From Dehalococcoidia bacterium (GTDB lineage Bacteria > Chloroflexota > Dehalococcoidia > Lucifugimonadales > UBA3495), in NCBI GenBank assembly GCA_965197665.1, contig CBDANO010000003.1, positions 361,924-425,923 of the forward strand: 64,000 nucleotides of DNA, in the 5' to 3' direction. Below are positions 7,102 to 63,915 of this stretch, in pieces. Within the stretch, counting starts at the first letter, position 1; each line of letters starts with the position of its first letter. The position numbers and the translations under genes were made by a program. Below the pieces are notes generated by a model. That model searched no databases. It saw only the letters and a list, made by a program, of their open reading frames with translations, and was not told the origin of the DNA.

Positions 7102-10100
7102 ATGCTTGATGAGTTTATGGACAACACGCACCGAATCGACGCCCTGAAATCGTCGCTGAAGGAACGCATTCTGATCATCGATGGGGCCATGGGCACGTCT
7201 ATACAGGACCGCGGCCTTGGGCCGGACGACTTTGGTGGCCTCGCCTATGAAGGATGCAATGAGTACCTGGTAGTCACCCGCCCTGACGTAATCGAAGGGA
7301 TTCACCAGGAATTTTTGGACGCTGGGGCCGACATCATAGAAACCAACACCTTCGGGGCGACCTCGGTGGTGCTGGAGGAGTACGGGCTGGCCCACGAGGC
7401 CAAGCGGCTAAACCGAGAAGCGGCCCAATTGGCCCGTCGAGCGGCCGACGAGGCCGGCAGAGCGGGGAAGCTCCGCTTTGTGGCCGGGTCTATGGGGCCG
7501 ACCACAAAGACCATTTCGGTTACCGGCGGCGTCACTTTCGAAGCGCTGGCCGGCGCATATCGGCAGCAAGCGGCCGGCCTGATGGAGGGCGGCGCCGACC
7601 TGCTACTCCTAGAGACCGGCCAAGACACTCTGAATATCAAAGCTGGGCTGGAGGGCATCGACCTGGCCTTCAGCGAGTTGGGCCGGTCCATTCCGGTGGC
7701 CGTTCAAGGCACTATCGAACCGATGGGGACCCTTTTGGCCGGGCAGGACGCGGAAGCCTTTTACACTTCCCTGGCCCACCGGGACTTGTTATGGATCGGC
7801 TTGAACTGCGCCACCGGGCCGGAGTTCATGACCGACCACATACGCACCCTCGCGGGGCTGTCCCGTTTTCCAGTGGCCTGCGTTCCCAACGCCGGGCTGC
7901 CCGACGAAGACGGGAGGTACAACGAGACCCCGGAGATGCTGGCGAATACTTTGGCGCGCTTCATGGATTCCCGCTGGCTAAACGTAGTTGGCGGGTGCTG
8001 CGGCACCGGACCGGACCACGTCAGCTTGCTGGCAAGGCGGGCCGAAGGGCGCGCCCCGCGTGAGACGGTCCGGTCCTCGGCGACGCGAATCTCGGGAATA
8101 GAGGCGTTGGTAGTTGACCAAGACACCCGCCCCGCTATTGTGGGCGAGCGCACCAACGTGCTGGGGAGCCGCCGTTTCCGTAGGCTCATCGCCGAGGGGG
8201 CCTTCGAGGAAGCGTCGGAAATAGGCCGCCGCCAAGTGCGCAACGGCGCCCATCTGCTGGACGTCTGTCTTCAAGACCCGGACCGGAACGAGACGGCCGA
8301 CCTGACGACCTTCCTCGAACTGCTGACCAAGAAGATCAAGACGCCGGTGATGATCGACTCGACCGACACGGAAGCCGTAGAACAAGCCTTGAAACTCTTG
8401 CAGGGGAAGTCGGTCATCAATTCCATAAACCTGGAGGACGGAGAGGCCCGCTTTCAAGCTATAGTCCCCTTGGCGCGGCGGTACGGGGCGGCCCTGGTGG
8501 TGGGCTGCATCGACGAAGACAAACAGCAGGCGCAAGCCGTTACCCGGCAGCGAAAGCTGGAAGTCGCCAAGCGTTCCTTCCGGATTCTAACGGAAAAGTA
8601 CGGCGTGCGCCCCGAAGACATCATATTCGACCCGCTGGTATTCCCGGCGGGCACCGGCGACGTGAACTATGTTGGGTCAGCCGCCGAAACGATAGAAGGG
8701 GTGCGCTTGATTAAGGAAGCCATCCCCGAAGCCAAAACGGTCCTGGGCATATCCAACGTATCCTTCGGGCTGCCCGGCGCAGGGCGGGAGGTGCTCAACT
8801 CAGTGTTCTTGTATCACTGCGTTCAGGCTGGGTTGGACATGGCTATCGTCAACTCGGAGCTGATGCAGCGTTATACTTCCATCCCTGAGCAGGAGAGGGA
8901 GCTGGCCGAAGACCTGATTTGGCACCGGGGTGAAGACCCGGTAGCGGCTTTCGCCGCCCACTTCCGAGACCGCCCCCCCCAAGCCACCGATGAAGAGCGG
9001 CGAGGCCTTCCGTTAGACCAACGCTTGGCCCTGGCAATAATCGAAGGCACCAAGGAGGGACTGGCTGAGGATCTAGAGGAAGCCCTAACCGAGAGAGAGC
9101 CCTTGGAAATCATCAACGGGCCCTTGATGGAGGGAATGACCGAAGTCGGGCGGCAATTCAACCTCAACCAGTTGATCGTGGCCGAGGTCCTCCAGTCTGC
9201 CGAGTCGATGAAATTCGCCGTGGCCCACTTGGAACCCCACATGGACCGGGTGGACAGCGCCATCCGGGGCAAGATCGTATTGGCTACGGTAAAAGGCGAC
9301 GTTCACGACATCGGCAAGAACCTCGTGGACATCATTCTTTCCAACAACGGCTACCGGATCATCAACCTGGGAATCAAGGTGCCTCCCCAGGAGTTGATCG
9401 ACGCCTACCAAGAGCACCGGCCAGACATCATCGGTTTGTCCGGCCTTCTGGTGAAGTCGGCTCAGATGATGGTGGAAACCGCCCAGGACTTCCAGCAGGC
9501 CGGAGTCAACTGCCCCATGCTGGTGGGGGGCGCCGCTCTATCCAACCGGTTCACCCGCCTTCGCATCGCGCCGGAGTACGACGGCCTCGTTGCTTACGCC
9601 CCGGATGCTATGTCCGGACTGGCCTTGGCCAACACGGTCATGGACGCGGACGAGCGGCAAAAGCTGGCCGCTCACCTTGACGCGGAAACCGATGAGCTGC
9701 TGAGGACACGCCCGCGAACGGCAGGACCGGCCCATCGACGAGTCTCCGGCCCCGCCATCTCCGGCCCGGGTCCGGCGCGACTTTCCTATACCCAACCCCC
9801 CCGACCTGAAGCTTCACGTGCTTCGGGACTTCGACTTGGAGCGGATTTTCCCCATGATAAATCCGCAGATGCTCTACGGGCGCCACCTGGGATTCAAGGG
9901 CCGGTTCGCTGAAGCGATAGCCGCCGGGGACCCCGCGGCCCAGGAGCTGCGCGAATCGGTCCGCAAGGTCGAGGAGTTGGTGCTGGCCAGCCGTCAAGTC
10001 AACTCCAACGCCGTGTTCAAATTCTTCCCTTGCCAAGGGGACGGCCAGAAGCTGTTGGTCTATAGCCCGGACGGCCAATCGGTGCTGGAGACCTTCTATT

Positions 10101-51957: not shown

Positions 51958-52110
51958 TCGACGACTATTCGGCACAAATAGTTGACGCGGGACACCTGCG
52001 GAGGGCGAAGTCGCGGACATAAAGCTTTATCCTCCGGGAAGTTTGGTAAAGGGGACTTGGAGGTGAAAGATAATAAGACCGGGGAAACCGGAGGAGTGAG
52101 GTGGACCCAG

Positions 52111-53050
52111 TCAGTTGGACAGAATTAAGGCGGAGTTAAGTGAGGGTCCCGCCGCTCCCGCATAAGATACCACGTCTGCTTCCGGCGACCACCTCCCAAC
52201 TGTTGACTCTTCATTTTGGGGCTCCCGGCCCTCAGAGAACACTTCCCCCGGCGTCCTATATCCCAAGGCCTGATGAGGCCTCTGGTCATTATAGAACCGG
52301 AAGTAAGCTCCCAGTTCCCTCCGGGCCTCCCCCGCGCTGGCGTAGGCTTTCAGGTACACCTCCTCGTACTTCACCGTGCGCCACAGCCGCTCGACGAAGA
52401 TGTTGTCCGCGTACCTCCCCTTCCCGTCCATGCTGATCTTCACACCGCGGTCCTGAAGGACCTGGGTGAATTCCTGGCTGGTGAACTGGCTCCCTTGGTC
52501 GGTGTTGAACACCTCCGGCCTTCCCCTCTCCATCGCCTCGATCAGAGCCTCGGCGCAGAAGCCGGCCTCCAGGGTGTTGGACAGACGCCAGGACAGGACA
52601 TACCGGCTGTGCCAGTCCATGACGGCCACCAGGTAGAGGAATCCCCGGGCCATGGGCAGGTAGGTGATATCGGCGGCCCACACCTGGTTGGGTCTGGTGA
52701 TTGCGGCCTTCCCCAACAGATAGGGATAGACCCGCACTCCCGGCGCCGGTCGGCTGGTTCTGGGTCGCCGGTAGATGGCCCTCAGTCCCATGACCCGCAT
52801 CAGCCGCTGCACCCGCTTCCGGCTCACCTGCTTGCCCTGCCGCTCCAGCCAGACCTTCATCCGCCTAGACCCATAGAAGGGGGTCTCCAGGTACTGCCGG
52901 TCCATCTCCCGCATCAGCGGCCCGCTTCCGAAGCCCCCTGGGGACGGTAGTAGATGCTGGAGCGGCTCACCCCCAGCAGGGCGCATTGCCCCACTATCGG
53001 CAACGAGGGATGCTCCCGGTCCACCATCTCCCGCCGCCGGGCCGGGTTCA
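52111..53050 (-). pseudogene. IS3-family transposase OrfB (DDE integrase core) with an internal frameshift
   Basis: ATG 53050 overlaps the orfA stop (ATGA) and reads MNPARRREMVDREHPSLPIVGQCALLGVSRSSIYYRPQGASEAGR, stopping at 52914. The integrase core (PLMREMDRQY...WAADITY...TDQGSQF) continues in another frame to 52111. Confidence 0.7.
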
Positions 53051-53332
53051 TGGACCGGACCTCTCCGCCAAGAAATCCCGCTCCACCTTCAACTGGCCGA
53101 TCTCCTGGTACAGGCGGGCGACCAGGGCAGCGTCGCTCTTGGCCTTCTGGTCCTGACCGTTGCCGAACACACCGGCGGCACCCCCGGTCAGGACCTTCTT
53201 CCAGGCTTGAATCTGCCCCGGGTGGACTTCGTGCCGGGCCGCCAGTTGGGCCACTGTCTCCTCTCCCTTCACCGCATCCAGGGCCACCCTGGCTTTGAAG
53301 GCCGGGCTGTGTTTCCTTCTTCCTTGCGCCAT
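53048..53332 (-). CDS. IS3-family transposase OrfA (HTH)
   Basis: From ATG 53332: MAQGRRKHSPAFKARVALDAVKGEETVAQLAARHEVHPGQIQAWKK, followed by a leucine-zipper-like tail. Confidence 0.8.
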   Translation of the reverse strand: MAQGRRKHSPAFKARVALDAVKGEETVAQLAARHEVHPGQIQAWKKVLTGGAAGVFGNGQDQKAKSDAALVARLYQEIGQLKVERDFLAERSGP

Positions 53333-53401
53333 GTCCTTCTCCTTCCAGACAGCAACAGCTGCCCTTAGTTTAGGAGCGGGACTCCCCACTAACCAATGTC
53401 G

Positions 53402-54796
53402 TCACGCGGCAATTGGCGCGCCAGAGGGTGCATAGGTTGTGTGTTCCGGAGCATCGGGCATGGGCACCAGCTGATAGCCCAGTTGCGCCGCCCGACGCTT
53501 TGCCGCGCGCAACGCCCGCTGCTGATATCGACGTTCGTAGTATTCGGCCCCGGCGTCCACGTACTCTTGGCCGTATCGCAGCATGGAATAGATGATGCGA
53601 GCCAGCTTGTGAGCGGTGGCAGTGATGGCCTTGGGCGCGCCCATCTGTGCCTTCTTCCGGCGCAGGAAGGCGCCCAGGGCGCTGTCGGAGTGGTGCAGCG
53701 CGTTGGCCGCCAGACGTAAGGCCGCCGACGCCCGGTTGGCGCTGGGCTTGGTCTTGGAGCTCATGACCTTGCCGCCGGTGATGCGGTTGTTTGGGCTCAA
53801 CCCCAACCAGGACGCAAAGTGCTTCGCACTCGTCCATTTCGTCATGTCGGTGCCAATCTCACTCACCACCTTGAACGCGGTGTAGGCATCCACACCGTCG
53901 ATCTGGGTCAGGTCAACCCCCGTCATACAGTACAGGTGCGTCCAAACGTCGAAGCGTGGCGCGTTTCCCTTGCTGCGTCTCCGGCCGGACTTCGCCGCTG
54001 GAAGATCACCATTGCTGTGACCCTCAAACCGCTCCAGCTGGGCTTCAATCTCCCGGTCGCACTCGGCAATCTTATCCTGATAGAACCGGTACAGCTCCAG
54101 GGCCTGGGTCAGCTCGAAGATGTGCTCTTCCCGCCAGTGGCCTTGCAGCGACTTGGCGATGGTTGCCTCGTCGGCCTTGATCCTGGGGTCGCGCAATAGC
54201 GCCAGTTGTCGCGGGTCCCGTTGGCCGCCCACGATGGCTTCGATGATGTCCAGGCCGGTCTTGCCCGTGATGTCGCTGATGACGTGGTGGAGCTTCACGT
54301 TCATCTGGGTCAGCGCCTTCTGCATGTGCTGGACGTGATGAGAGGCGTACTGCACCAGCATGGCCCGCTGCCGCAGGTAGCTGCGCAGGCGGCGTATATC
54401 CTCGTTCGGCCGAAAGGCCCCGGAGAGCAGCCCGTAGGTGTGCAGCTGTTGCAGCCACTGGCAGTCCAGAACGTCGGTCTTGCGGCCGGGCACGTTCTTG
54501 ATGCGCCGGGGGTCCACCAGCATCACCTGGAAGCCCCGTTCTTCCAGCACTCCGAACAACGGTATCCAGTACACGCCGGTGGACTCCATAACCACGATCT
54601 CCACACCACACTCGGCCAGCCAGTCCGCCAAACGGTACAGGTCCGCCGTGAAAGCCTCAAACTCTTGCACCGGCTGTTCCGAGCGATTAACGGGAACCGC
54701 CACGAAATGGCTGGTGGCGCCCACGTCGATGCCCGCCGCGTTCAGGTTCAACTGGGATAGCTCCGCCGGATTCGTGCTGATCTTGCCTCTCTTCAT
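53402..54796 (-). CDS. IS110-family (DEDD) transposase/recombinase
   Basis: From ATG 54796: NAAGIDVGATSHFVAV...VVMESTGVYWIPL. The C-terminal domain reads LTQIDGVD...SWLGLSPNNRITGGK. Confidence 0.85.
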   Translation of the reverse strand: MKRGKISTNPAELSQLNLNAAGIDVGATSHFVAVPVNRSEQPVQEFEAFTADLYRLADWLAECGVEIVVMESTGVYWIPLFGVLEERGFQVMLVDPRRIKNVPGRKTDVLDCQWLQQLHTYGLLSGAFRPNEDIRRLRSYLRQRAMLVQYASHHVQHMQKALTQMNVKLHHVISDITGKTGLDIIEAIVGGQRDPRQLALLRDPRIKADEATIAKSLQGHWREEHIFELTQALELYRFYQDKIAECDREIEAQLERFEGHSNGDLPAAKSGRRRSKGNAPRFDVWTHLYCMTGVDLTQIDGVDAYTAFKVVSEIGTDMTKWTSAKHFASWLGLSPNNRITGGKVMSSKTKPSANRASAALRLAANALHHSDSALGAFLRRKKAQMGAPKAITATAHKLARIIYSMLRYGQEYVDAGAEYYERRYQQRALRAAKRRAAQLGYQLVPMPDAPEHTTYAPSGAPIAA

Positions 54797-55095
54797 CGCC
54801 CCTCCGCCATTGCCGTGTAGGCCCATCGCCGGAGGGAGTCGCGAACTGTAGACAATCTCCCCAACGGGATCGCCCTGACCGGGGCGTCACCAATGATGCC
54901 GTCGCAAGTCTCCCAGACCATGCTCTCACCCGGGCAATGCGCACCAGTGTCCACTCGGCCTCAATCCGGACGACAGGCCTCATCGGGAGCCTACACCACT
55001 GGCGGGACTATCTGGTTAGTCGCCTCTGCACGGCCCGGATACGGGCATAACATTGCTCTCTCACTTAGCCACCTGTCCAGTTTTCCGGGTCCACC
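54797..55095 (-). ncRNA. Candidate IS110 5' non-coding RNA (bridge-RNA-like) region
   Basis: Call rests on position only: a 299-bp ORF-free segment directly upstream of the IS110 recombinase, where IS110-group elements encode their guide RNA. Confidence 0.3.
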
Positions 55096-55822: not shown

Positions 55823-58501
55823 GTGATGAGGGATGATGAGACCGCGCCGGCTTATACTCGGCGCCACTGGGCAAAATCGGACCGGCAGGACCACTGGCGG
55901 ATACACCTGCTTGAGCACCACCTAGCCGACGTCAGTGCGTGTTTCGAGGCGCTGCTAAAACAACCCACGATCTACCAACGACTGGCCCGCACCGCCGGGC
56001 GCGACGACTTGGATCCAACGACCGTGGCGCGCCTGTGCGTGTTCGCCGCCCTCCACGACATCGGCAAGGTGAACGTCGGCTTCCAGGCGCAGATATGGCG
56101 GCGCGAAGATTTTCCGGGAGGCCATCGGCCTGCATCCTTTCGACGGGTCGGCCACACGTTGGATATTACGCCGGTGTTGAACGGCGATGACCAGGCCACC
56201 GGAGACTGGTTTTTCGATTCGCTCGGCTGGTGGGAAGACGCTATTTCCTGGGACAACGATGAGGGCAAAACAGTCTGCGCTCTGCTCATCGCGGCGTTAT
56301 CGCACCACGGGCGGCCCCTGCAACTGTATGGAAGCCGGTCGCGCAACTCCGAAATCTGGCAGTCCTTTAACAGCCTGAGTCCCAAAGGCTGCGTCCAGCG
56401 CGTTGGTCGGCTGATACGTGAGTGGTTCCCACAAGCCTTCATACCTGATTCGGCTCCCATCCCTGACGCCGCCGCCTTCCAACACATGTTCCTAGGACTG
56501 TGCAACCTGGCCGACTGGATTGGCTCCAACGAGAACTGGTTTAAATTTGTTGACGCGCCCCAGGATGATTACATTGCCACTGCTCGCGACAAGGCCAATC
56601 AATCCATCAAAGCAGTTGGGCTGGACCTCACAGAACAACGTTGGCGGTTCGCCGGAGCGCCGGGTTTCGATGTTTTGTTTCCTCACGTCGACGGCCAAGA
56701 TAACGCCATTCAGCGGGCCGCGGCCCAAGATACACCGTTGGACCAGCGGTTGGTCATCATCGAATCGGAGACCGGTTCCGGCAAGACCGAAGCGTCTCTC
56801 TGGCGTTTCGCCAGGATGTACGAAGCCGAGTTGGTCGATGGCATTTACTTCGCGCTACCCACCCGGGCCTCCGCAGTGCAGATACACGAGCGAGTCCGGC
56901 AATTCATCGGGAATCTGTTCCCGGAGCTTCCCCGCCCTCCGGTTGTGCTCGCTGTTCCCGGTTACGAGTCGGACCAGGACTGCATCGAATCGGGGTTACA
57001 AGATTACGACGCCTCGTGGAACGGCGATAACCACCGGGAAACGCCCTGGGCTTCGGAGAGTCCTAAACGATTTCTCGCGGCGCAGATTGCCGTGGGAACT
57101 GTGGATCAGGCGATGTTGGGAGCGCTCAAAGTCAAGAACGCCCACCTGCGGACCGCTTGCCTGGCTCGCAACCTTCTGGTGGTTGACGAGGTCCACGCCT
57201 CCGACACCTACATGCGCCGCGTGCTGAAGTCACTGCTCGATGTCCACCTCGGCGCCGGGGGTTACGCTTTGCTGATGTCGGCCACTCTGGGCTCGAGGGC
57301 TCGGCGGCAATGGCTGTCCAACCGCCGCCTCAGCCCCGACGATGGCCTGAGCCTCAATGACGCGATCAAGGCGCCCTATCCCGCCGTCAGCGTCATGGCA
57401 TCCAGTTCCGCGGCCTTTGGAGGAGAAATCATCACTGCCGCGGGTGAGAATGACCGGGAGAAAACCGTCAATATCACCGCCAGGCCCGATATGCAGGACT
57501 TCGGCCAGGTGGCACAACTGGGCCTGGCGGCCGCCCGCGCCGGCGCCAAGGTACTGGTGGTCCGCAACACGGTCGGGCACGCTCTCGCCACAATGGAGGC
57601 GATGGAACTGGCCGCTAGTGATGGCGAACTCGGCTTGTTGTTCGCCTGCCAGGACAAGCCAACGCTGCACCACAGCCGCTTCGCCCCCGGCGACCGCCGC
57701 CTGCTGGACCGGGAGGTGGAAGCTCGGCTAGGTAAGGAGCGCAGACCTGGCGGCGTTGTTGTGGTCGGCACACAGACCCTGGAACAGTCATTGGACATCG
57801 ACGCCGACCTGCTGATTACCGACCTGTGCCCCGTGGACGTGCTGCTGCAACGGATCGGCCGCCTCCATCGCCACCGGGAACATGACCGCCCCGACGGTTA
57901 CGTCGCGCCCGCCTGTATCGTACTGACGCCACAAGACGAGAACCTGTCGCTACTGCTAAAATCGCCGGTGAACGGACTGGGCCGCTACGTCTACGAAGAC
58001 CTGCGAGTCCTCGAAGCCACCCGACGGTTAATTATTGAGCATCGTCAATGGAGCATCCCTCGGATGAACCGCGAGTTGGTGGAGCGCGCTACCCACCCGG
58101 ACGCGCTGGACACCATCACTCAAGAATTGGGTGAAGCCTGGCAAGAACACGCCGTCCGAGTCACCGGGGATAAATTTGCCGAAGGTCTGACCGCCGGCAC
58201 GGCCATTATCAACTGGGACCTGTCTTTTTTTGCCGACAACCGCGATGTGCTCTTCGGCTCGGCGGAAGAAAAGATACGTACCCGTCTTGGCGACGAGGGC
58301 ATCGAATTGAAGTTTGACCCGCCGCCGCCCAGCCCTTTCGTCCCGGGTCGGACCATCGACCGGATGACGGTCCCCTTCCGTTGGCTTGCCGAGACCGCTG
58401 TCGACAGCCCCGTGGTCCCCGCCCTGATCGAAGAAGGCTTCACATTCAGCATCGGCGCCCGGTCGTTCCGCTACGATCGCCTGGGCTTGCACCCAATGTG
58501 A
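55823..58501 (+). CDS. cas3: Type I-E CRISPR-associated nuclease/helicase Cas3
   Basis: 892-aa ORF. HD domain motifs are HLLEHHLADV, AALHDIGK and LSHHG. Helicase motifs are ESETGSGKTEA and VVDEVHASD. Confidence 0.9.
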   Translation: MMRDDETAPAYTRRHWAKSDRQDHWRIHLLEHHLADVSACFEALLKQPTIYQRLARTAGRDDLDPTTVARLCVFAALHDIGKVNVGFQAQIWRREDFPGGHRPASFRRVGHTLDITPVLNGDDQATGDWFFDSLGWWEDAISWDNDEGKTVCALLIAALSHHGRPLQLYGSRSRNSEIWQSFNSLSPKGCVQRVGRLIREWFPQAFIPDSAPIPDAAAFQHMFLGLCNLADWIGSNENWFKFVDAPQDDYIATARDKANQSIKAVGLDLTEQRWRFAGAPGFDVLFPHVDGQDNAIQRAAAQDTPLDQRLVIIESETGSGKTEASLWRFARMYEAELVDGIYFALPTRASAVQIHERVRQFIGNLFPELPRPPVVLAVPGYESDQDCIESGLQDYDASWNGDNHRETPWASESPKRFLAAQIAVGTVDQAMLGALKVKNAHLRTACLARNLLVVDEVHASDTYMRRVLKSLLDVHLGAGGYALLMSATLGSRARRQWLSNRRLSPDDGLSLNDAIKAPYPAVSVMASSSAAFGGEIITAAGENDREKTVNITARPDMQDFGQVAQLGLAAARAGAKVLVVRNTVGHALATMEAMELAASDGELGLLFACQDKPTLHHSRFAPGDRRLLDREVEARLGKERRPGGVVVVGTQTLEQSLDIDADLLITDLCPVDVLLQRIGRLHRHREHDRPDGYVAPACIVLTPQDENLSLLLKSPVNGLGRYVYEDLRVLEATRRLIIEHRQWSIPRMNRELVERATHPDALDTITQELGEAWQEHAVRVTGDKFAEGLTAGTAIINWDLSFFADNRDVLFGSAEEKIRTRLGDEGIELKFDPPPPSPFVPGRTIDRMTVPFRWLAETAVDSPVVPALIEEGFTFSIGARSFRYDRLGLHPM

Positions 58502-58631: not shown

Positions 58632-58853
58632 ATGACTCAAATCACCGCGCGTGTGCCGGACCAACTGGTGGAAGCGTTGGACGGGGCCGCTGCACAGCTC
58701 AAACGCAGCCGCGCCGACGTTATTCGCCACGCGTTGGAGCATTATTTGGAGGACTTCGACGACCTCACCGTAGCAGTGGAACGGCTGCGGGACCCGTCCG
58801 ACCCTGTCTTGGACTGGGATGAGGTCCGGAGTGACCTACTCGGTTCGGATTAA
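58632..58853 (+). CDS. Ribbon-helix-helix (CopG/RelB-like) antitoxin
   Basis: 73 aa from ATG 58632 (GGGAGG RBS), reading MTQITARVPDQLVEALDGAAAQLKRSRADVIRHALEHYL. Confidence 0.75.
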   Translation: MTQITARVPDQLVEALDGAAAQLKRSRADVIRHALEHYLEDFDDLTVAVERLRDPSDPVLDWDEVRSDLLGSD

Positions 58854-59091
58854 GCGCACAGCCGCCAAGGAGTTGGCCGGGATTCCGCAACCGGCAAGGA
58901 CTCGCATGGTCCATGCCATTGACTCGCTCATTGAGCAGCCCTTGGCCGGGATCCCGCTCAAGGGAGGTCTCCGCGGGTTGCGGCGCCTGCGCGTTGGCGA
59001 CTACCGGATTGTGTACGAACTGCTGGACGACGAACTTGTCGTCCTGGTGGTCCGGGTAGCTCACCGCCGCCACGCCTACCGCCCGGCGTAA
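58819..59091 (+). CDS. RelE/ParE-family toxin
   Basis: YSVRIKRTAAKELAGIP...LRVGDYRIVYELLDDELVVLVVRVAHRRHAY. It overlaps the antitoxin 3' end. An alternative GTG start is at 58831. Confidence 0.8.
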   Translation: MRSGVTYSVRIKRTAAKELAGIPQPARTRMVHAIDSLIEQPLAGIPLKGGLRGLRRLRVGDYRIVYELLDDELVVLVVRVAHRRHAYRPA

Positions 59092-59263
59092 CCTACGGCC
59101 AACACTCAGAACTATCTACATTCAACCCTGGCAAGCCGTGAATGTTGGGTGCGTAGCTCTCGCGGCGGGTTTGAGACCCACCGTTTTGCCGACCGAAGCG
59201 ACGACTCGCCGTCCCAAAGCTGAGCCCCAGGTCAACGGGAGTCGGACTACCAATCCGCCCCAA

Positions 59264-59341
59264 TTTCTATCCCCGCGCCTACGGGGGAACATACGTTAAC
59301 TTGGCTGAACATGGTCTATTCCCACTTTCTGTGGGGAACTC
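59264..59341 (-). CRISPR. Degenerate two-repeat mini-array with type I-E-like repeats and a 20-nt spacer
   Basis: The minus strand reads GAGTTCCCCACAGAAAGTGGGAATAGACC, then ATGTTCAGCCAAGTTAACGT, then ATGTTCCCCCGTAGGCGCGGGGATAGAAA. Both 29-mers fit the I-E repeat pattern GAGTTCCCC-hairpin-GGGGATAAACC. Their hairpins are kept by compensatory changes (CCCAC/GTGGG versus CCCCG/CGGGG). Confidence 0.55.
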
Positions 59342-59686
59342 CGGATTGGCCCGGCCCTTGTCCCGACCATCCGGATGCCATAAAGTACCATTTAATCGTT
59401 CCGCTAACTAAACTTACTCATTGCATTAAGAGCGCATGATGAAAGCACTTCCCTATTCCAAACTTGAGGAAATATTGCGTGATAAAGAAGCCCCGTTGTC
59501 TGAAGCTGAATCCAGATGTTACGAACTCAGACTTGAATGCAAATCGATCCGGACCACCGTAGACATTATCGACGGTTCTAAGGATGCTCAACCGGAGGAT
59601 GACAAACCGGGCTAGATTGAGTTATGGGAAAACTTTAACATAGCGCAGGTGTTCATAATTTCGATTCTGGCCTAGTGGGAAAGTCT
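59342..59686. promoter_or_regulatory. AT-rich spacer: likely divergent promoter region (Cascade operon on +, mini-array leader on -)
   Basis: GC drops visibly relative to the flanks. The region lies immediately upstream of cas8e on + and of the first mini-array repeat on -. Confidence 0.35.
59436..59615 (+). CDS. Hypothetical 59-aa acidic small ORF (below the ORF-track cutoff)
   Basis: Hand-translated as MMKALPYSKLEEILRDKEAPLSEAESRCYELRLECKSIRTTVDIIDGSKDAQPEDDKPG. No clear RBS, and codon usage is AT-rich and atypical for this window. Confidence 0.2.
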   Translation: MMKALPYSKLEEILRDKEAPLSEAESRCYELRLECKSIRTTVDIIDGSKDAQPEDDKPG

Positions 59687-61273
59687 ATGCACAATATCTT
59701 AACATGCCGCCTGATTCGGATAGACAAATCCAAGGCGCCCCGTGTAGAAGCGTCCTTGCCGGAAATCTATGTCGCGCTAATGGCCGACAAGGTTATATCC
59801 TTCCCTTCCCTGCGGCCCCACCAGCGCCACGCCTGGCACGCCTTCCTGGTGCAGTTGGGGGCTATGGCGATGCACAGGGCCGGATTAACTGAATTGCCGG
59901 TTGGTCCCGAAGAGTGGGCCACGTTGATTCGCGGCCTAACCGCTGACTACAACGACGACGAACCTTGGCAACTCGTCGTGAAAGACATCACCAAACCCGC
60001 TTTCATGCAGCCACCGGCCCGTTCCAAAGAGCGGGCACAGGAATACACGAGCATTGTCGATACGCCCGACGAGTTGGACATGCTAGTCACGTCCAAGAAT
60101 CACGATCTCAAGTCGGCGGTGGCGGTCCAGGCCAACGTTGATGATTGGATTTTCGCTCTGATTTCCCTTCAGACGATGGAGGGTTTCGGCGGCGCAGGAA
60201 ACTACGGTATCTCGAGGATGAACGGCGGCTTGGGTAACCGGCCCGCTTTCGCCCTGGCTCCTGCCGACGGCGGCCTCGGGGCCCATGTCAAGCGCGATAT
60301 TCTAGCCTTGCTGGAACGTCGTCGGGGGTTGGATACAGATGCCCCAAGGGTCGACAACCCTACAACCCTGTTATGGACTATGCCGTGGGACGGAACTACT
60401 AATGAGGCATTGCCGTTGGACTGCCTTGACCCATTTTACGTCGAGGTTTGCCGCCGAGTCCGACTGTACGACGCGGACGGGCTATTGCGCGGCATCCGCA
60501 CAAGCTCTAAAGCAGCGAGGATAAGAGGCCAAGAATTAAAAGGCAGGACCGGGGATCCTTGGACTCCTACCAACCAAGAAAGAGAAGGTTTGCCGCTCAC
60601 CCTTTCTGCCGGCGGATTTACCTACAAGAGAATTACCGAGTACCTGCTGTCGGGGGCTTGGGAGCGGCCAACCTTGCTCCGCCCCACGGAATCCGAACAA
60701 CACTCCGCTGAACCAATGCGGCTGGTAGCCCGCGCTATGGTGCGAGGTCAAGGCAAGACTGAGGGTTACCACGAGCGTAGCATCCCCGTGAGACACAAGG
60801 TCGTGTCGGCAATGCTACGCCGCGATGCTACGCAGGAACTGGGCCAGATCGCTGATTCCCGTATTGGAGACGTTGGCAAAATCCAACGCATACTCAGTCA
60901 CGCCATACAGGTTTTCCTGGCCCGAGGCGACGGGGACAAAGTTAGCCCTGAACACCGCAACCTCGCGCGGCCCTGGTTAAACCGCCTTGATCAAATTGTG
61001 GATGGGCGCTTCTTCGAGGACTTGCAGATGGAGTTCGACGCCGACGGAAACGAACGCCCGAGCATCCGTAACGAATGGTTGCGGAACGGAGATGATGGCG
61101 TGATAGACCACGCCCACAACTTGCTCAATGAAGCTATGGACTCCCTGCCTTGCCCCGCCATCCACCGCTATAAGGCGCGAGCTAATGCCGAAGGCCTGTT
61201 TGAAGGGCGGCTTCGGGGGAACTCAGGGTTGCCCGACGCCTTCTCAAGTACTAATAGGGAGATTGACCAATGA
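59687..61273 (+). CDS. cas8e: Type I-E Cascade large subunit Cse1/CasA (Cas8e)
   Basis: About 528 aa, first gene of the cse1-cse2-cas7-cas5-cas6 order. The N-terminal SLPEIYVALMADKVISFPSLRPHQRHAWHAFLVQL fits Cse1. An alternative GTG start is at 59675. Confidence 0.85.
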   Translation: MHNILTCRLIRIDKSKAPRVEASLPEIYVALMADKVISFPSLRPHQRHAWHAFLVQLGAMAMHRAGLTELPVGPEEWATLIRGLTADYNDDEPWQLVVKDITKPAFMQPPARSKERAQEYTSIVDTPDELDMLVTSKNHDLKSAVAVQANVDDWIFALISLQTMEGFGGAGNYGISRMNGGLGNRPAFALAPADGGLGAHVKRDILALLERRRGLDTDAPRVDNPTTLLWTMPWDGTTNEALPLDCLDPFYVEVCRRVRLYDADGLLRGIRTSSKAARIRGQELKGRTGDPWTPTNQEREGLPLTLSAGGFTYKRITEYLLSGAWERPTLLRPTESEQHSAEPMRLVARAMVRGQGKTEGYHERSIPVRHKVVSAMLRRDATQELGQIADSRIGDVGKIQRILSHAIQVFLARGDGDKVSPEHRNLARPWLNRLDQIVDGRFFEDLQMEFDADGNERPSIRNEWLRNGDDGVIDHAHNLLNEAMDSLPCPAIHRYKARANAEGLFEGRLRGNSGLPDAFSSTNREIDQ

Positions 61274-61881
61274 CCACCATCCGATCCGTTGACGCTGCCG
61301 GTGAACCGGTGCCGGAAGGCCAGACCCGGTTCTGGGGTGAAATTGCCTTCTACTTCGCGAGGAAAATTGCCCGCGCCGACTTTCAACGAGGTGACTTGGC
61401 AGGGCTCCGGCGTATGGACCCCGATGCGCCGGACACGGCGCCCTTTTGGAGGCTGTTGGCGGAGCAAGATCTCTTGGGGATTCCCATCGTCGAAAACAAA
61501 TGGGCTTTAATCCTCCACGGCATTGCTCTGATGACCCCTACCCACAGCGGTGAAGGAAGTCCCCAGAGCGCTCACGACGGTTCCGTGCATGTGGGGCGAG
61601 CGCTGTTTTTGGGGGCGGAATCCCAGCGACGGGATAGCCCATTTTACAGCGAAACGCGCCTGAACCGGCTGCTAACAGCCCAAGGACCAATGCTCCGAAC
61701 CCTGTTGGCTCGGATGTTCCGGATGCTGGGGGCCTCGGACGTGTCATTCAACTGGCGGGAAATGGCTTCGTTCATTCTGAACGAAGGCTACGACGATGAA
61801 GCCACCGAGCGGTCCCGCCGCCGCATTGCCAAAGAGTATTATCAGGCCGAGCGGCGCAGTTCCCGGGTATCTGAAGAGTAG
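61270..61881 (+). CDS. cse2: Type I-E Cascade small subunit Cse2/CasB
   Basis: 203-aa ORF. Its ATGA start overlaps the cse1 stop, and position and size are typical of Cse2. Confidence 0.8.
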   Translation: MTTIRSVDAAGEPVPEGQTRFWGEIAFYFARKIARADFQRGDLAGLRRMDPDAPDTAPFWRLLAEQDLLGIPIVENKWALILHGIALMTPTHSGEGSPQSAHDGSVHVGRALFLGAESQRRDSPFYSETRLNRLLTAQGPMLRTLLARMFRMLGASDVSFNWREMASFILNEGYDDEATERSRRRIAKEYYQAERRSSRVSEE

Positions 61882-61908
61882 CAAATAACTTTACTAAGGA
61901 GTCTCCCC

Positions 61909-63075
61909 ATGACTATCCCTAGATTTCTTCAAGTCCACACCCTGCACTCGTACCCGGCTGCCCTGTTGAACCGGGACGATAGCGGCTTGGCTAAGCGTAT
62001 GCCCTTCGGCGGCGCGGTTCGCACCCGCATTTCCTCTCAATGTCTGAAGCGGCATTGGCGGGTTGCCCAGGACGAGTTCGCCATCCACAACATCGCCGGC
62101 AGCATGTCGGCAATTCGGTCGCGGAACACGGTGGAACGGAAGGTAATACAGCCGTTGCGCGATGGCGGTAACATTGCCGATGAAATTCTCACCGCGGTGG
62201 AAAACGCTTTCAACGTCGGCGTATACGGCAGCAGCGGCACGTCGGAAAGAGGCAGACAACCCCTATTGTTGGGCCTGCCGGAAGTGGCACACCTGCACGA
62301 AAGAGCAGCCGCCATTTGCGCCGAACACTCCGGCGACGCCAAGGCTGCCGGCGAGGCTGCCACTGCGCTTTTCACCGCACGTCGGGGCGAAGGCAACAAC
62401 TTCCGGGCGTTGCTCGATACTGCCCGCCTGCCCGCGGGGTTGGAGGGCGCGCTGTTTGGTCGCATGGTGACCTCCGACCCAGGGGCCAACATCGATGCCG
62501 CTATCCATGTTGCCCACGCTTTCACCGTGCACGGCGAGGAGAGCGAGAGCGACTATTTCTCGGTGGTGGATGACTTGCAACGCGACGATGAGGACGCCGG
62601 GGCCGCCCACATTGGCGATATGGAACTGACCGCCGGCCTGTTCTACGGCTACGTGGTGGTGGACGTGCCGGGGCTGGTTTCCAACCTGGAAGGCTGCCGT
62701 GCCGAGGACTGGCAGACCGCCGACCGGGATCTGGCCGCCAACGTGGTGGAGCACCTGTTGCATCTGATCGCCACCGTCAGCCCTGGCGCCAAGCTGGGTT
62801 CCACCGCGCCCTACGGCCGGGCTAGGTTCATGCTCATTGAAGCGGGGTCCCGCCAGCCCTACAGTCTCGCCGACGCCTTTCGCAAGCCCGTCCGTCCCCG
62901 GGTCGAAGATGCGCTGGACGCCCTGACTGCCGAGATCAAAGGTCAGGATGCCGCCTACGGAATGCGGTCCACCCGCCGGTTCATGTCGATAGAGGACTGC
63001 GACGTCCCCGGCTCTGAGCGGTTTTGCCTGGACGACCTGGCGTCCTGGGCGGCGCAGACCGTCCGGGAAGGCTAG
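61909..63075 (+). CDS. cas7: Type I-E Cascade backbone subunit Cas7e (Cse4/CasC)
   Basis: 388-aa ORF with the characteristic N-terminus FLQVHTLHSYPAALLNRDDSGLAKRMPFGGAVRTRISSQCLKRHWR. Confidence 0.9.
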   Translation: MTIPRFLQVHTLHSYPAALLNRDDSGLAKRMPFGGAVRTRISSQCLKRHWRVAQDEFAIHNIAGSMSAIRSRNTVERKVIQPLRDGGNIADEILTAVENAFNVGVYGSSGTSERGRQPLLLGLPEVAHLHERAAAICAEHSGDAKAAGEAATALFTARRGEGNNFRALLDTARLPAGLEGALFGRMVTSDPGANIDAAIHVAHAFTVHGEESESDYFSVVDDLQRDDEDAGAAHIGDMELTAGLFYGYVVVDVPGLVSNLEGCRAEDWQTADRDLAANVVEHLLHLIATVSPGAKLGSTAPYGRARFMLIEAGSRQPYSLADAFRKPVRPRVEDALDALTAEIKGQDAAYGMRSTRRFMSIEDCDVPGSERFCLDDLASWAAQTVREG

Positions 63076-63087
63076 GCGGTATAGCTA

Positions 63088-63915
63088 ATGAAACACTTGA
63101 TTCTAAACCTGGAATCCCCGCTGGTGGCCTTCGGCGGCGAGACCATCGACAACCTGGGCGTCATCCGCTGGTTCCCGTCCGCATCGATGCTAACCGGCCT
63201 GCTGGCCAACGCCCTGGGCTGGCGGCGCATGGAACGCGGGCGGCACCAACAATTGCAGGACCGGCTTGTCTTCGCCGCCCGTATCGACCGAGAGCCGGCA
63301 GGCGGGGTGCGTCTGACCGACTTTCAGACAGCGCAGTTAGCTGCTAACGACAAAGGCTGGACTACCCGGGGAGCACCTGATGATCGGGCCGGCGGAGCCA
63401 ATACCTACAACGCCCCCCACCTGCGTTACCGCGACTATTTCGCCGACATGTGCGTAACCGTTGCCCTGCGGCTGGGACCGGACGCTGACGACCCCACGCT
63501 GGACGACCTGGCCGATGCGCTGCAAGAACCGGCGCGCCCTTTGTTTATCGGGCGCAAACCATGCTTGCCTTCGGCCCCGCTGGTCCCAAATAAAGAGTGT
63601 ATAGATCGGGATTCCGCGCTGGCCGCCGTCCTCCATGCGCCGATGCAAGAGGAAGACAGAAAAGCCGCAGGTAATGTACGGGTCCTGTGGCCGGAGAACG
63701 AAGATCACGGTGTGAATGTGCGGTGGCCCGAAGACGACGGCCCGTCTGAGCCGGACGTAGCCGCGAACAACACCTACATGCTCACCGACCAACGCAATTG
63801 GGTATCGGGGTTGCACGGCGGCGGTCGGCCAGTTTGGGAGGGAGTCGTAGGGAGGGAGTCGTTCACCACTCTCGGGGGAACACCAGAACAACCCGGAAAG
63901 GAGCAACAGCAATGA
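63088..63915 (+). CDS. cas5: Type I-E Cas5e (CasD)
   Basis: 275-aa ORF with the N-terminus MKHLILNLESPLVAFGGETIDNLGVIRWFPSASMLTGLLANALGW, typical of Cas5e. Confidence 0.85.
   Translation: MKHLILNLESPLVAFGGETIDNLGVIRWFPSASMLTGLLANALGWRRMERGRHQQLQDRLVFAARIDREPAGGVRLTDFQTAQLAANDKGWTTRGAPDDRAGGANTYNAPHLRYRDYFADMCVTVALRLGPDADDPTLDDLADALQEPARPLFIGRKPCLPSAPLVPNKECIDRDSALAAVLHAPMQEEDRKAAGNVRVLWPENEDHGVNVRWPEDDGPSEPDVAANNTYMLTDQRNWVSGLHGGGRPVWEGVVGRESFTTLGGTPEQPGKEQQQ

Follow-up and report, generated by a model that had tools for sequence, protein, structure and literature searches.

A candidate CreR-type mini-array aimed at the promoter of its own type I-E cas operon in a Dehalococcoidia bacterium

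We analyzed a 64,000-nucleotide (nt) stretch of DNA, here called the window, from a Dehalococcoidia bacterium (assembly GCA_965197665.1, contig CBDANO010000003.1, positions 361,924 to 425,923, forward strand). [quoted passage not shown] We consider this element likely to be a CreR-type autoregulatory mini-array of the type I-E system, which would steer Cascade onto the operon's own promoter. Its repeats are related to those of the genome's own CRISPR array and form hairpins, the spacer-like stretch between them is partly complementary to a nearby site flanked by a protospacer-adjacent motif (PAM), the arrangement is conserved in related loci, and guide and target covary. Transcription of the mini-array, processing of its RNA, Cascade binding and repression are what these features predict. 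Since every sequence-level hallmark of the CreR class is present, the element would represent an already described kind of regulator. A sequence-only reading of the window had suggested that the element might be a CreR/CreTA-like mini-array with a regulatory role in a type I-E system, and our results support that proposal, with the evidence favouring CreR over CreTA.

That reading had noticed two I-E-like repeats on the strand opposite to the cas genes, lying between cas3 with its adjacent toxin-antitoxin pair and cas8e, and both the sequence and the context were confirmed. On the minus strand, positions 59341 to 59264 read as PsiR1 (29 nt), followed by the spacer-like PsiS (21 nt) and then PsiR2 (28 nt); the reverse complement of 59264-59341 is GAGTTCCCCACAGAAAGTGGGAATAGACC, then ATGTTCAGCCAAGTTAACGT(A), then (A)TGTTCCCCCGTAGGCGCGGGGATAGAAA. 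The same letters had been divided into two 29-mers (the third segment being ATGTTCCCCCGTAGGCGCGGGGATAGAAA) around a 20-nt spacer. The sequence given was exact, but the division was not retained: because the true repeat of this genome is 28 nt long and its spacer unit 33 nt, PsiR2 is set at 28 nt and PsiS at 21 nt, the latter comprising one handle base and a 20-nt guide. The parts are as follows.

59313 to 59341, minus strand: PsiR1, the degenerate upstream repeat GAGTTCCCCACAGAAAGTGGGAATAGACC, with a 5-bp hairpin (CCCAC/GTGGG) followed by the 5' handle ATAGACC
59292 to 59312, minus strand: PsiS, ATGTTCAGCCAAGTTAACGTA, whose first base is handle position -1, a register learned from relatives
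59311 to 59292, minus strand: the 20-nt guide TGTTCAGCCAAGTTAACGTA, i.e. PsiS minus its first base
59264 to 59291, minus strand: PsiR2, the downstream repeat TGTTCCCCCGTAGGCGCGGGGATAGAAA, which supplies the 3' hairpin handle and whose own trailing handle has decayed (CC to AA)

When the 64-kb window was scanned with the pattern GTTCCCCN9GGGGATA, PsiR1 and PsiR2 were the sole close matches, with 0 and 1 mismatch, and the ten others, all at 3 mismatches, were at chance level. The decay of the two repeats is asymmetric, with the 5' handle retained in PsiR1 and the hairpin, or 3' handle, retained in PsiR2. Both hairpins (CCCAC/GTGGG in PsiR1 and CCCCCG/CGCGGGG in PsiR2) are contained in the minimum free energy fold, and the whole 96-nt stretch showed no excess stability over shuffled sequences (z = -0.02). 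Searches of the window against Rfam, at gathering and at permissive thresholds, returned nothing in 59150-59700 and one tRNA elsewhere. The GC content is 0.445-0.47 across 59300-59800, compared with 0.58-0.65 in the surroundings. The AT-rich stretch next to the element had earlier been noted to sit where a leader would be; it is not a leader and holds a divergent promoter region, the target described below and a 59-codon open reading frame (ORF).

No real CRISPR array was found inside the window by the repeat-pattern scan. The genome's own array had been expected beyond cas1-cas2, outside the window, as the standard for judging the two repeats, and it was found there, in the continuation of this locus past the window end (L081; ENA ERZ25072625 contig_8, identified by an exact Cas7 protein match). 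There, beyond cas6e and the cas1-cas2 gene, GGTTTCCCCGTAGGCGCGGGGATAGACC is repeated about 78 times along the plus strand at a 61-nt period, and these 28-nt repeats alternate with 33-nt spacer units (32-nt guides). PsiR2 shares 24 of its 28 positions with this repeat, among them the hairpin and its loop GTAGGCG, a loop that is different in most relatives; it departs from the repeat at its first base, at a single base flanking the stem and at the two bases that end the handle. PsiR1 has little in common with the genomic repeat except the 5-bp hairpin and the exact handle ATAGACC. The real array lies about 6.9 kb downstream of the mini-array, whose guide falls 12 nt short of the 32-nt guides in that array. 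We rejected the idea that the mini-array is a bona fide adaptive array: it has two repeats only, with 24/28 identity or far less, a spacer of 21 rather than 33 nt, and the opposite strand. Downstream of cas6e, Cas1 and Cas2 were called as a single 444-residue (aa) product (L081 12948-14282) with Cas1 (weak match) and Cas2_CT1978 domains, which may be a true fusion or a gene-calling artefact.

The sequence-only reading had seen no convincing partial target and had suggested looking for a PAM-flanked one. Such a site exists at 59394 to 59416, at the promoter upstream of cas8e. In order to locate it, we used rules learned from relatives: the first base after ATAGACC is handle position -1, and the target lies on the plus strand, in the interval between mini-array and cas8e, with AA before it. 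The site and the putative promoters around it are listed here.

59394 to 59396, plus strand: PAM, AAT
59397 to 59416, plus strand: protospacer CGTTCCGCTAACTAAACTTA, partial target of the guide
59358 to 59386, plus strand: putative sigma-70-type promoter of the operon comprising a small ORF and cas8e (-35 TTGTCC at 59358-59363, 17-nt spacer, -10 TAAAGT at 59381-59386)
59390 to 59382, minus strand: putative extended -10 TGGTACTTT for transcription of the mini-array, proposed from sequence and overlapping the plus-strand -10

Guide positions 6, 12 and 18 are flipped out by Cascade, and all three mismatch at this target. Among the non-flipped positions, 14 of 17 match, the mismatches being at positions 1 (where an rU:dG wobble is possible), 9 and 14. 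Scored over positions 1-18 without 6, 12 and 18, the site reaches 12/15, which makes 59397-59416 the top match to PsiS in the whole 64 kb on both strands, with or without a PAM requirement; the next-best sites in the window reach 11/15 without a PAM and 10/15 with AA. Shuffled guides reached 12/15 in 8 of 20000 cases when confined to the intergenic region, the plus strand and an AA PAM, and in 57 of 5000 cases with no PAM constraint on both strands. There is no sign of a second target at the cas3 or toxin-antitoxin promoter, as no other AA-PAM site reaches 11/15 anywhere in the window. An initial search of the window with an uninterrupted 5' seed in four registers gave chance-level matches only; the true site escaped it because guide position 1 mismatches. 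Two candidates from this stage, AGG followed by TGTTCA at 59647-59655 and GGC followed by ATGTTaAG at 59705 (minus strand), were dropped as being at chance level.

The PAM begins 8 nt and the protospacer 10 nt after the -10 box, so that the protospacer spans approximately +1 to +24. The target lies 290 nt from cas8e, with the small ORF between them. In nearly all related loci, the plus strand after the mini-array shows cTTGACA, a -10-like hexamer about 17 nt further on and the PAM a few bases later; the putative plus-strand promoter of the window is the positional homologue of this conserved promoter, at the level of a consensus. On the other strand, TAnnnT boxes occur 10-50 nt upstream of PsiR1 in most relatives.

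The relatives come from a Cas8e-based scan with one genome per species, which yielded 80 type I-E loci (L001-L080). The 53 closest share 55-71% Cas8e identity with the window and belong to metagenome-assembled genomes (MAGs) labelled Dehalococcoidia/Chloroflexota, Binatia, Entotheonella and Caldilineaceae; a metagenome scan with Cas8e found no relative closer than 58%. Their arrays share one repeat family, GGTTCCCCCG....CGCGGGGATAGACC. The presence of the element in relatives had been put forward as a check, and the same antisense mini-array stands upstream of cas8e in 27 of the 53 closest loci and in four others (L078 and L162-L164), or 32 loci including the window. On the minus strand, each shows a degenerate hairpin whose end reads [A/G]TAG.CC, followed by a spacer-like stretch and a repeat hairpin that is nearly intact. 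PsiS measures 33-35 nt in most loci and 21-23 nt in the window, L050, L047, L039 and L041. The PsiR1 stem adjoins the handle in 28 of 29 loci while its sequence varies by compensatory changes (CCCAC/GTGGG, CCACAC/GTGTGG, CCTCGT/GCGAGG, CACTGC/GCGGTG and TCCCAA/TTGGGA), which is what selection for a Cas6e substrate would give. The sequence-only reading had drawn the same conclusion from the compensatory stem differences between the two repeats of the window.

We then compared each mini-array with its own intergenic region on both strands, scoring neither strand nor PAM. In 31 of 32 loci the best site was a plus-strand one preceded by AA (at -3/-2). It reached at least 12/15 in 29 of the 32 (28 relatives and the window), in all 29 on the plus strand, flanked by AA and at the same promoter, and cross-locus controls, in which the PsiS of one locus was scored against the region of another, gave a mean of about 7.5. 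Over 29 non-redundant pairs, the match rate was 0.86-1.0 at guide positions 1-5, 7-11 and 13-14, against 0.24 at position 6, 0.10 at position 12 and 0.24 at position 18, all three left unscored, a loss of matching that is expected for Cascade. Beyond about position 20 matching falls to background, and the PAM-distal third of the guide is unpaired in the 33-nt versions. The closest mini-array-bearing relative, L050 (67% Cas8e identity), has a 22-nt PsiS, an antitoxin remnant and a homologous small ORF; between it and the window, guide positions 3, 17 and 19 differ, and the target has changed along with them.

The base preceding the protospacer can be compared with that of the real arrays. We tallied the base that follows ATAGACC in 2469 real spacers from the arrays of L001-L053 and L081 (14285-19060): C accounts for 42%, G for 33%, T for 22% and A for 2%. 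Because 98% of them begin with C, G or T, and if the -1 base is co-acquired as in E. coli, this distribution suggests an AAB PAM, derived solely from the first base of real spacers. Among the regulatory targets, 15 pairs have T at -1 (PAM AAT), 9 have C (AAC), 3 have A (AAA) and 2 have G (AAG). G may be under-used there (AAG in 2 pairs) relative to its 33% share among the first bases of real spacers.

From these features, the following mechanism can be proposed. Minus-strand transcription of the mini-array would start at a promoter overlapping the divergent one of the cas8e operon, and Cas6e would cut at the base of the PsiR1 and PsiR2 hairpins, giving a predicted RNA of about 49 nt with the handle AUAGACC plus one base, the 20-nt guide and a 21-nt hairpin handle. 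Cascade carrying this RNA would recognize AAT at 59394-59396 and pair with 59397-59416. Once bound, it would block transcription of the small ORF and of cas8e-cse2-cas7-cas5-cas6e, and so repress its own synthesis. Cas3 would probably not be licensed, leaving the chromosome uncut, because the pairing is short (20 nt) and imperfect; by analogy with work on shortened E. coli CRISPR RNAs (crRNAs) and with the CreR/CreA precedent, the absence of self-cleavage is plausible. Competition from ordinary crRNAs for Cascade, or its inactivation by anti-CRISPRs, would relieve the repression, as shown for the type I-E CreR of S. enterica.

The closest described counterpart is that S. enterica CreR, which represses P_casA through E. 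coli Cascade and is relieved by extra crRNAs or AcrIE8 (Liu et al. 2023, 10.1101/2023.03.10.532045). Both elements are degenerate two-repeat mini-arrays upstream of casA/cas8e in which PsiR1 keeps the 5' handle and PsiR2 the 3' handle; in both, PsiS can pair in part with a site beside a PAM in the casA promoter region, and the circuit is proposed to let Cascade repress itself while sensing crRNA load and anti-CRISPRs. They differ in that the Salmonella match runs uninterrupted over 15 nt beside an AAG PAM and lies about 140 bp upstream of casA, whereas the window, known from sequence alone, has 14/17 matches, AAT and a 21-nt PsiS, with the target just after the -10, 290 nt from cas8e and separated from it by the small ORF. 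Mini-arrays with the cas8 promoter as their target have been predicted in the cas3-cas8 interval of about 19% of bacterial type I-E loci (Shmakov et al. 2023, 10.1101/2023.03.03.530964). The element resembles these in its long cas3-cas8 intergenic region, its predicted transcription opposite to cas3 and its PAM-flanked target at the cas8 promoter, as well as in the tolerated mismatches at every sixth position, the 20-60 bp spacers, the enrichment of toxin-antitoxin genes nearby and the variable cargo genes. In those mini-arrays, however, the seed-proximal repeat is the better conserved one, whereas in the window and its relatives the seed-proximal PsiR1 is degenerate and PsiR2 nearly intact. 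Like CreTA of the Haloarcula hispanica type I-B system and CrePA of the Acinetobacter type I-F system, the mini-array RNA would act with Cascade to repress, via partial complementarity, a promoter with a gene directly behind it; unlike them, where a demonstrated toxin is silenced (the CreT RNA and the CreP protein), the transcript that would be repressed in the window runs into the Cascade genes. The guide also has the same length as that of the E. coli -12 crRNAs (20-nt spacer), which Cas6e processes and which assemble into Cascades containing fewer Cas7 subunits, with very weak interference (Kuznedelov et al. 2016, PMC5159557), but those were laboratory constructs with a fully matching plasmid target, whereas the guide of the window is natural and aimed at a host promoter. 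The unusual points of our element are thus minor: the 20-nt guide, the intact repeat on the seed-distal side, a target that comes shortly after the -10 instead of upstream of the promoter, and a small ORF in the transcript that would be regulated.

Several observations weigh against a CreR-type function. With guide mismatches at positions 1, 9 and 14, Cascade may bind weakly here, and in E. coli a C1T change at guide position 1 abolished the weak interference of a -12 crRNA (PMC5159557). A strict promoter and terminator scan called neither of the two proposed promoters, its sole promoter match being upstream of the antitoxin gene. In the family comparison, the scored positions match by construction, so that the independent evidence consists of the PAM, the strand, the dips at every sixth position and the shuffle and cross-locus controls. 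Finally, the closest Cas8e relatives (L001, L003, L004, L006, L014, L016 and L020) have no mini-array, which indicates that it is dispensable and often gained or lost; because none of the loci scanned carries a mini-array at more than 67% Cas8e identity to the window, fine conservation cannot be traced within the window's own lineage.

The genes surrounding the element in the window are the following.

55823 to 58501, plus strand: cas3, with Cas3_HD, DEAD and Cas3 C-terminal domains
58632 to 58853, plus strand: ribbon-helix-helix (RHH) antitoxin, between cas3 and the mini-array
58819 to 59091, plus strand: ParE-family toxin, between cas3 and the mini-array
59436 to 59615, plus strand: small ORF encoding 59 aa (58 if translation begins at the second ATG), first gene behind the targeted promoter
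59687 to 61273, plus strand: cas8e (cse1; TIGR02547 2e-25, PADLOC Cas8e 5.5e-163), called start ATG 59687, reading frame open from GTG 59675
61270 to 63915, plus strand: cse2, cas7 and cas5, Cascade genes downstream of the targeted promoter

The locus continues with cas6e, which is present beyond the window end (L081). The RHH/ParE pair beside the mini-array fits the enrichment of toxin-antitoxin genes near mini-arrays reported in the literature; in L050 the RHH antitoxin (approximately 9440-9650) is a frameshifted remnant and ParE is absent. Transposase genes of the IS3 (rve), IS110 and IS21/Mu-type families lie on both sides of the CRISPR-cas locus (window 52109-54798, minus strand; L081 19207-21167). 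Because of these flanking transposases and the mixed taxonomic labels of the closest Cas8e relatives, the sequence evidence points to horizontal spread of the locus.

The small ORF at 59436-59615 matches no Pfam, NCBIfam or PADLOC family. Its AlphaFold model (predicted local distance difference test score, pLDDT, 87) shows one helix over residues 6-49, and the protein is hydrophilic. The family is rare, with 20 cluster representatives among 5.8 billion proteins, all unnamed and none with a Pfam domain, and all inspected contexts are type I-E loci in which the ORF lies between cas3 (with or without a mini-array) and cas8e. Except for L165, it stands directly behind a mini-array in all cases. 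Its members, and those of a second, unrelated family in the same slot, are listed here.

L050 9849-10007, L018 9751-9942, L007 9777-9947 and L008 9718-9912: small-ORF family, 52-65 aa, between the mini-array target and cas8e
L013 4659-4838, L021 9825-9983 and L162-L166 3001-3198: further members of the same family
L005 9756-9953, L011 6179-6394, L041 9741-9929, L049 9735-9977, L043 9709-9993 and L038 9690-9932: second, unrelated small-ORF family in the same slot

The proteins of the second family look rich in beta structure and carry a motif like ...V.A......P.SLTVRTP...VEVQV; NCBIfam yields no match for them, and their PADLOC matches are at chance level only (E 0.012 and above). At L165/L166 2905-3000 the mini-array is gone, a PsiR2-like tail remains beside cas3, and the small ORF and a target-like TTAGTTGTAATGCT are kept, which looks like a natural deletion variant.

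These small ORFs raise the question of whether the protein, rather than Cascade, is what the RNA controls. In an addiction or anti-anti-CRISPR module similar to CreTA or CrePA, the RNA would silence a harmful 59-aa single-helix protein that is released upon loss or inhibition of Cascade. The position of the small ORF as the first gene after the target, the rarity and constant location of its family, the unrelated beta-rich ORF in the same slot elsewhere, which resembles the variable 'cargo' of Shmakov et al., and the existence of a CRISPR-repressed protein toxin (CreP) in type I-F are consistent with such a module. Nevertheless, in six mini-array loci (L002, L010, L012, L025, L026 and L027) the target is 50-125 nt from cas8e and the slot holds no ORF of at least 30 aa with a plausible start, so the conserved function would be the control of cas8e. 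In addition, nothing in the hydrophilic, helical protein suggests toxicity, and L165 keeps the ORF without a mini-array, which would be lethal if it encoded an unrepressed toxin. We regard an addiction role as improbable; it is compatible with the CreR reading.

The two repeats could also be a non-functional remnant, left by the decay of an old array or by an aborted insertion, with the match to 59397-59416 arising by chance. Standalone repeats do occur sporadically in type I-E loci according to Shmakov et al. (10.1101/2023.03.03.530964), the guide carries three mismatches that count, one of them at position 1, the element is missing from the nearest Cas8e relatives, and the overall RNA fold is no better than that of shuffles. 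A remnant would not be expected, however, to recur with the same architecture, orientation and position in 31 other loci across several phyla-level labels, to maintain its hairpin via compensatory changes or to covary with its target; moreover, no site in the 64 kb matches better than the target, which has the family's PAM and occupies the homologous promoter position, and the decay is patterned rather than random (handle kept in PsiR1, hairpin in PsiR2). We consider this explanation highly improbable. Least probable of all, and hardly credible in our view, is a plain inverted repeat with no role for Cascade, acting as a protein operator or a transcript hairpin. The segments 59292-59311 and 59397-59416 are indeed inverted copies about 85 nt apart, and a transcript over both could pair. 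This would leave unexplained why AA always stands beside one copy, why matching is lost exactly at positions 6, 12 and 18, why it decays beyond about 20 nt though PsiS is 33 nt long in most loci, and why the flanks derive from repeats.

Along with the favoured CreR-type function, the short guides and the small ORF allow a more speculative proposal. Guides of about 20 nt occur in at least six loci. The short guides of L041 and L039 resemble the 5' parts of different long guides, those of L025 and L045, respectively (PsiS is 34-35 nt in L025/L026 and L045); this similarity, assessed with no tree, suggests that truncation of the non-pairing PAM-distal part occurred more than once and that some short guides arose independently. 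One could imagine that the 20-nt guide builds a reduced, four-Cas7 'regulatory Cascade' whose structure makes it unable to license Cas3 and, jointly, that the small-ORF protein is a CRISPR-repressed effector, either a CreP-like growth inhibitor set free by the loss of Cascade or its blockage by anti-CRISPRs, or a modulator of Cascade. We think it rather unlikely that both would hold together.

A different arrangement was seen in L077 (9760-9900), from a SAR202 MAG with 41% Cas8e identity. Here the mini-array is in sense orientation, with a guide of about 20 nt, between a strong promoter, TTGACA-18-TATGAT, and cas8e, and its target lies on the opposite strand over the -10 box (PAM AAC, 14/15). 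Such a regulator would be excised from the operon's own leader transcript.

In summary, the probable CreR-type mini-array adds an uncultivated, horizontally shared type I-E clade to the CRISPR-Cas loci that would be regulated by their own degenerate crRNA. The comparative evidence is unusually clean, as the PAM emerges unscored in 31 of 32 loci and the match drops out precisely at positions 6, 12 and 18. The guide's PAM-distal third appears dispensable for this function, since it never pairs in the 33-nt versions and is absent from the 20-nt ones. The analysis predicts the promoter of the operon and its control point, and it flags two unannotated families of small proteins that would be co-regulated with Cascade. 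Natural short guides of this kind may also serve as models for nuclease-silent type I repression tools.

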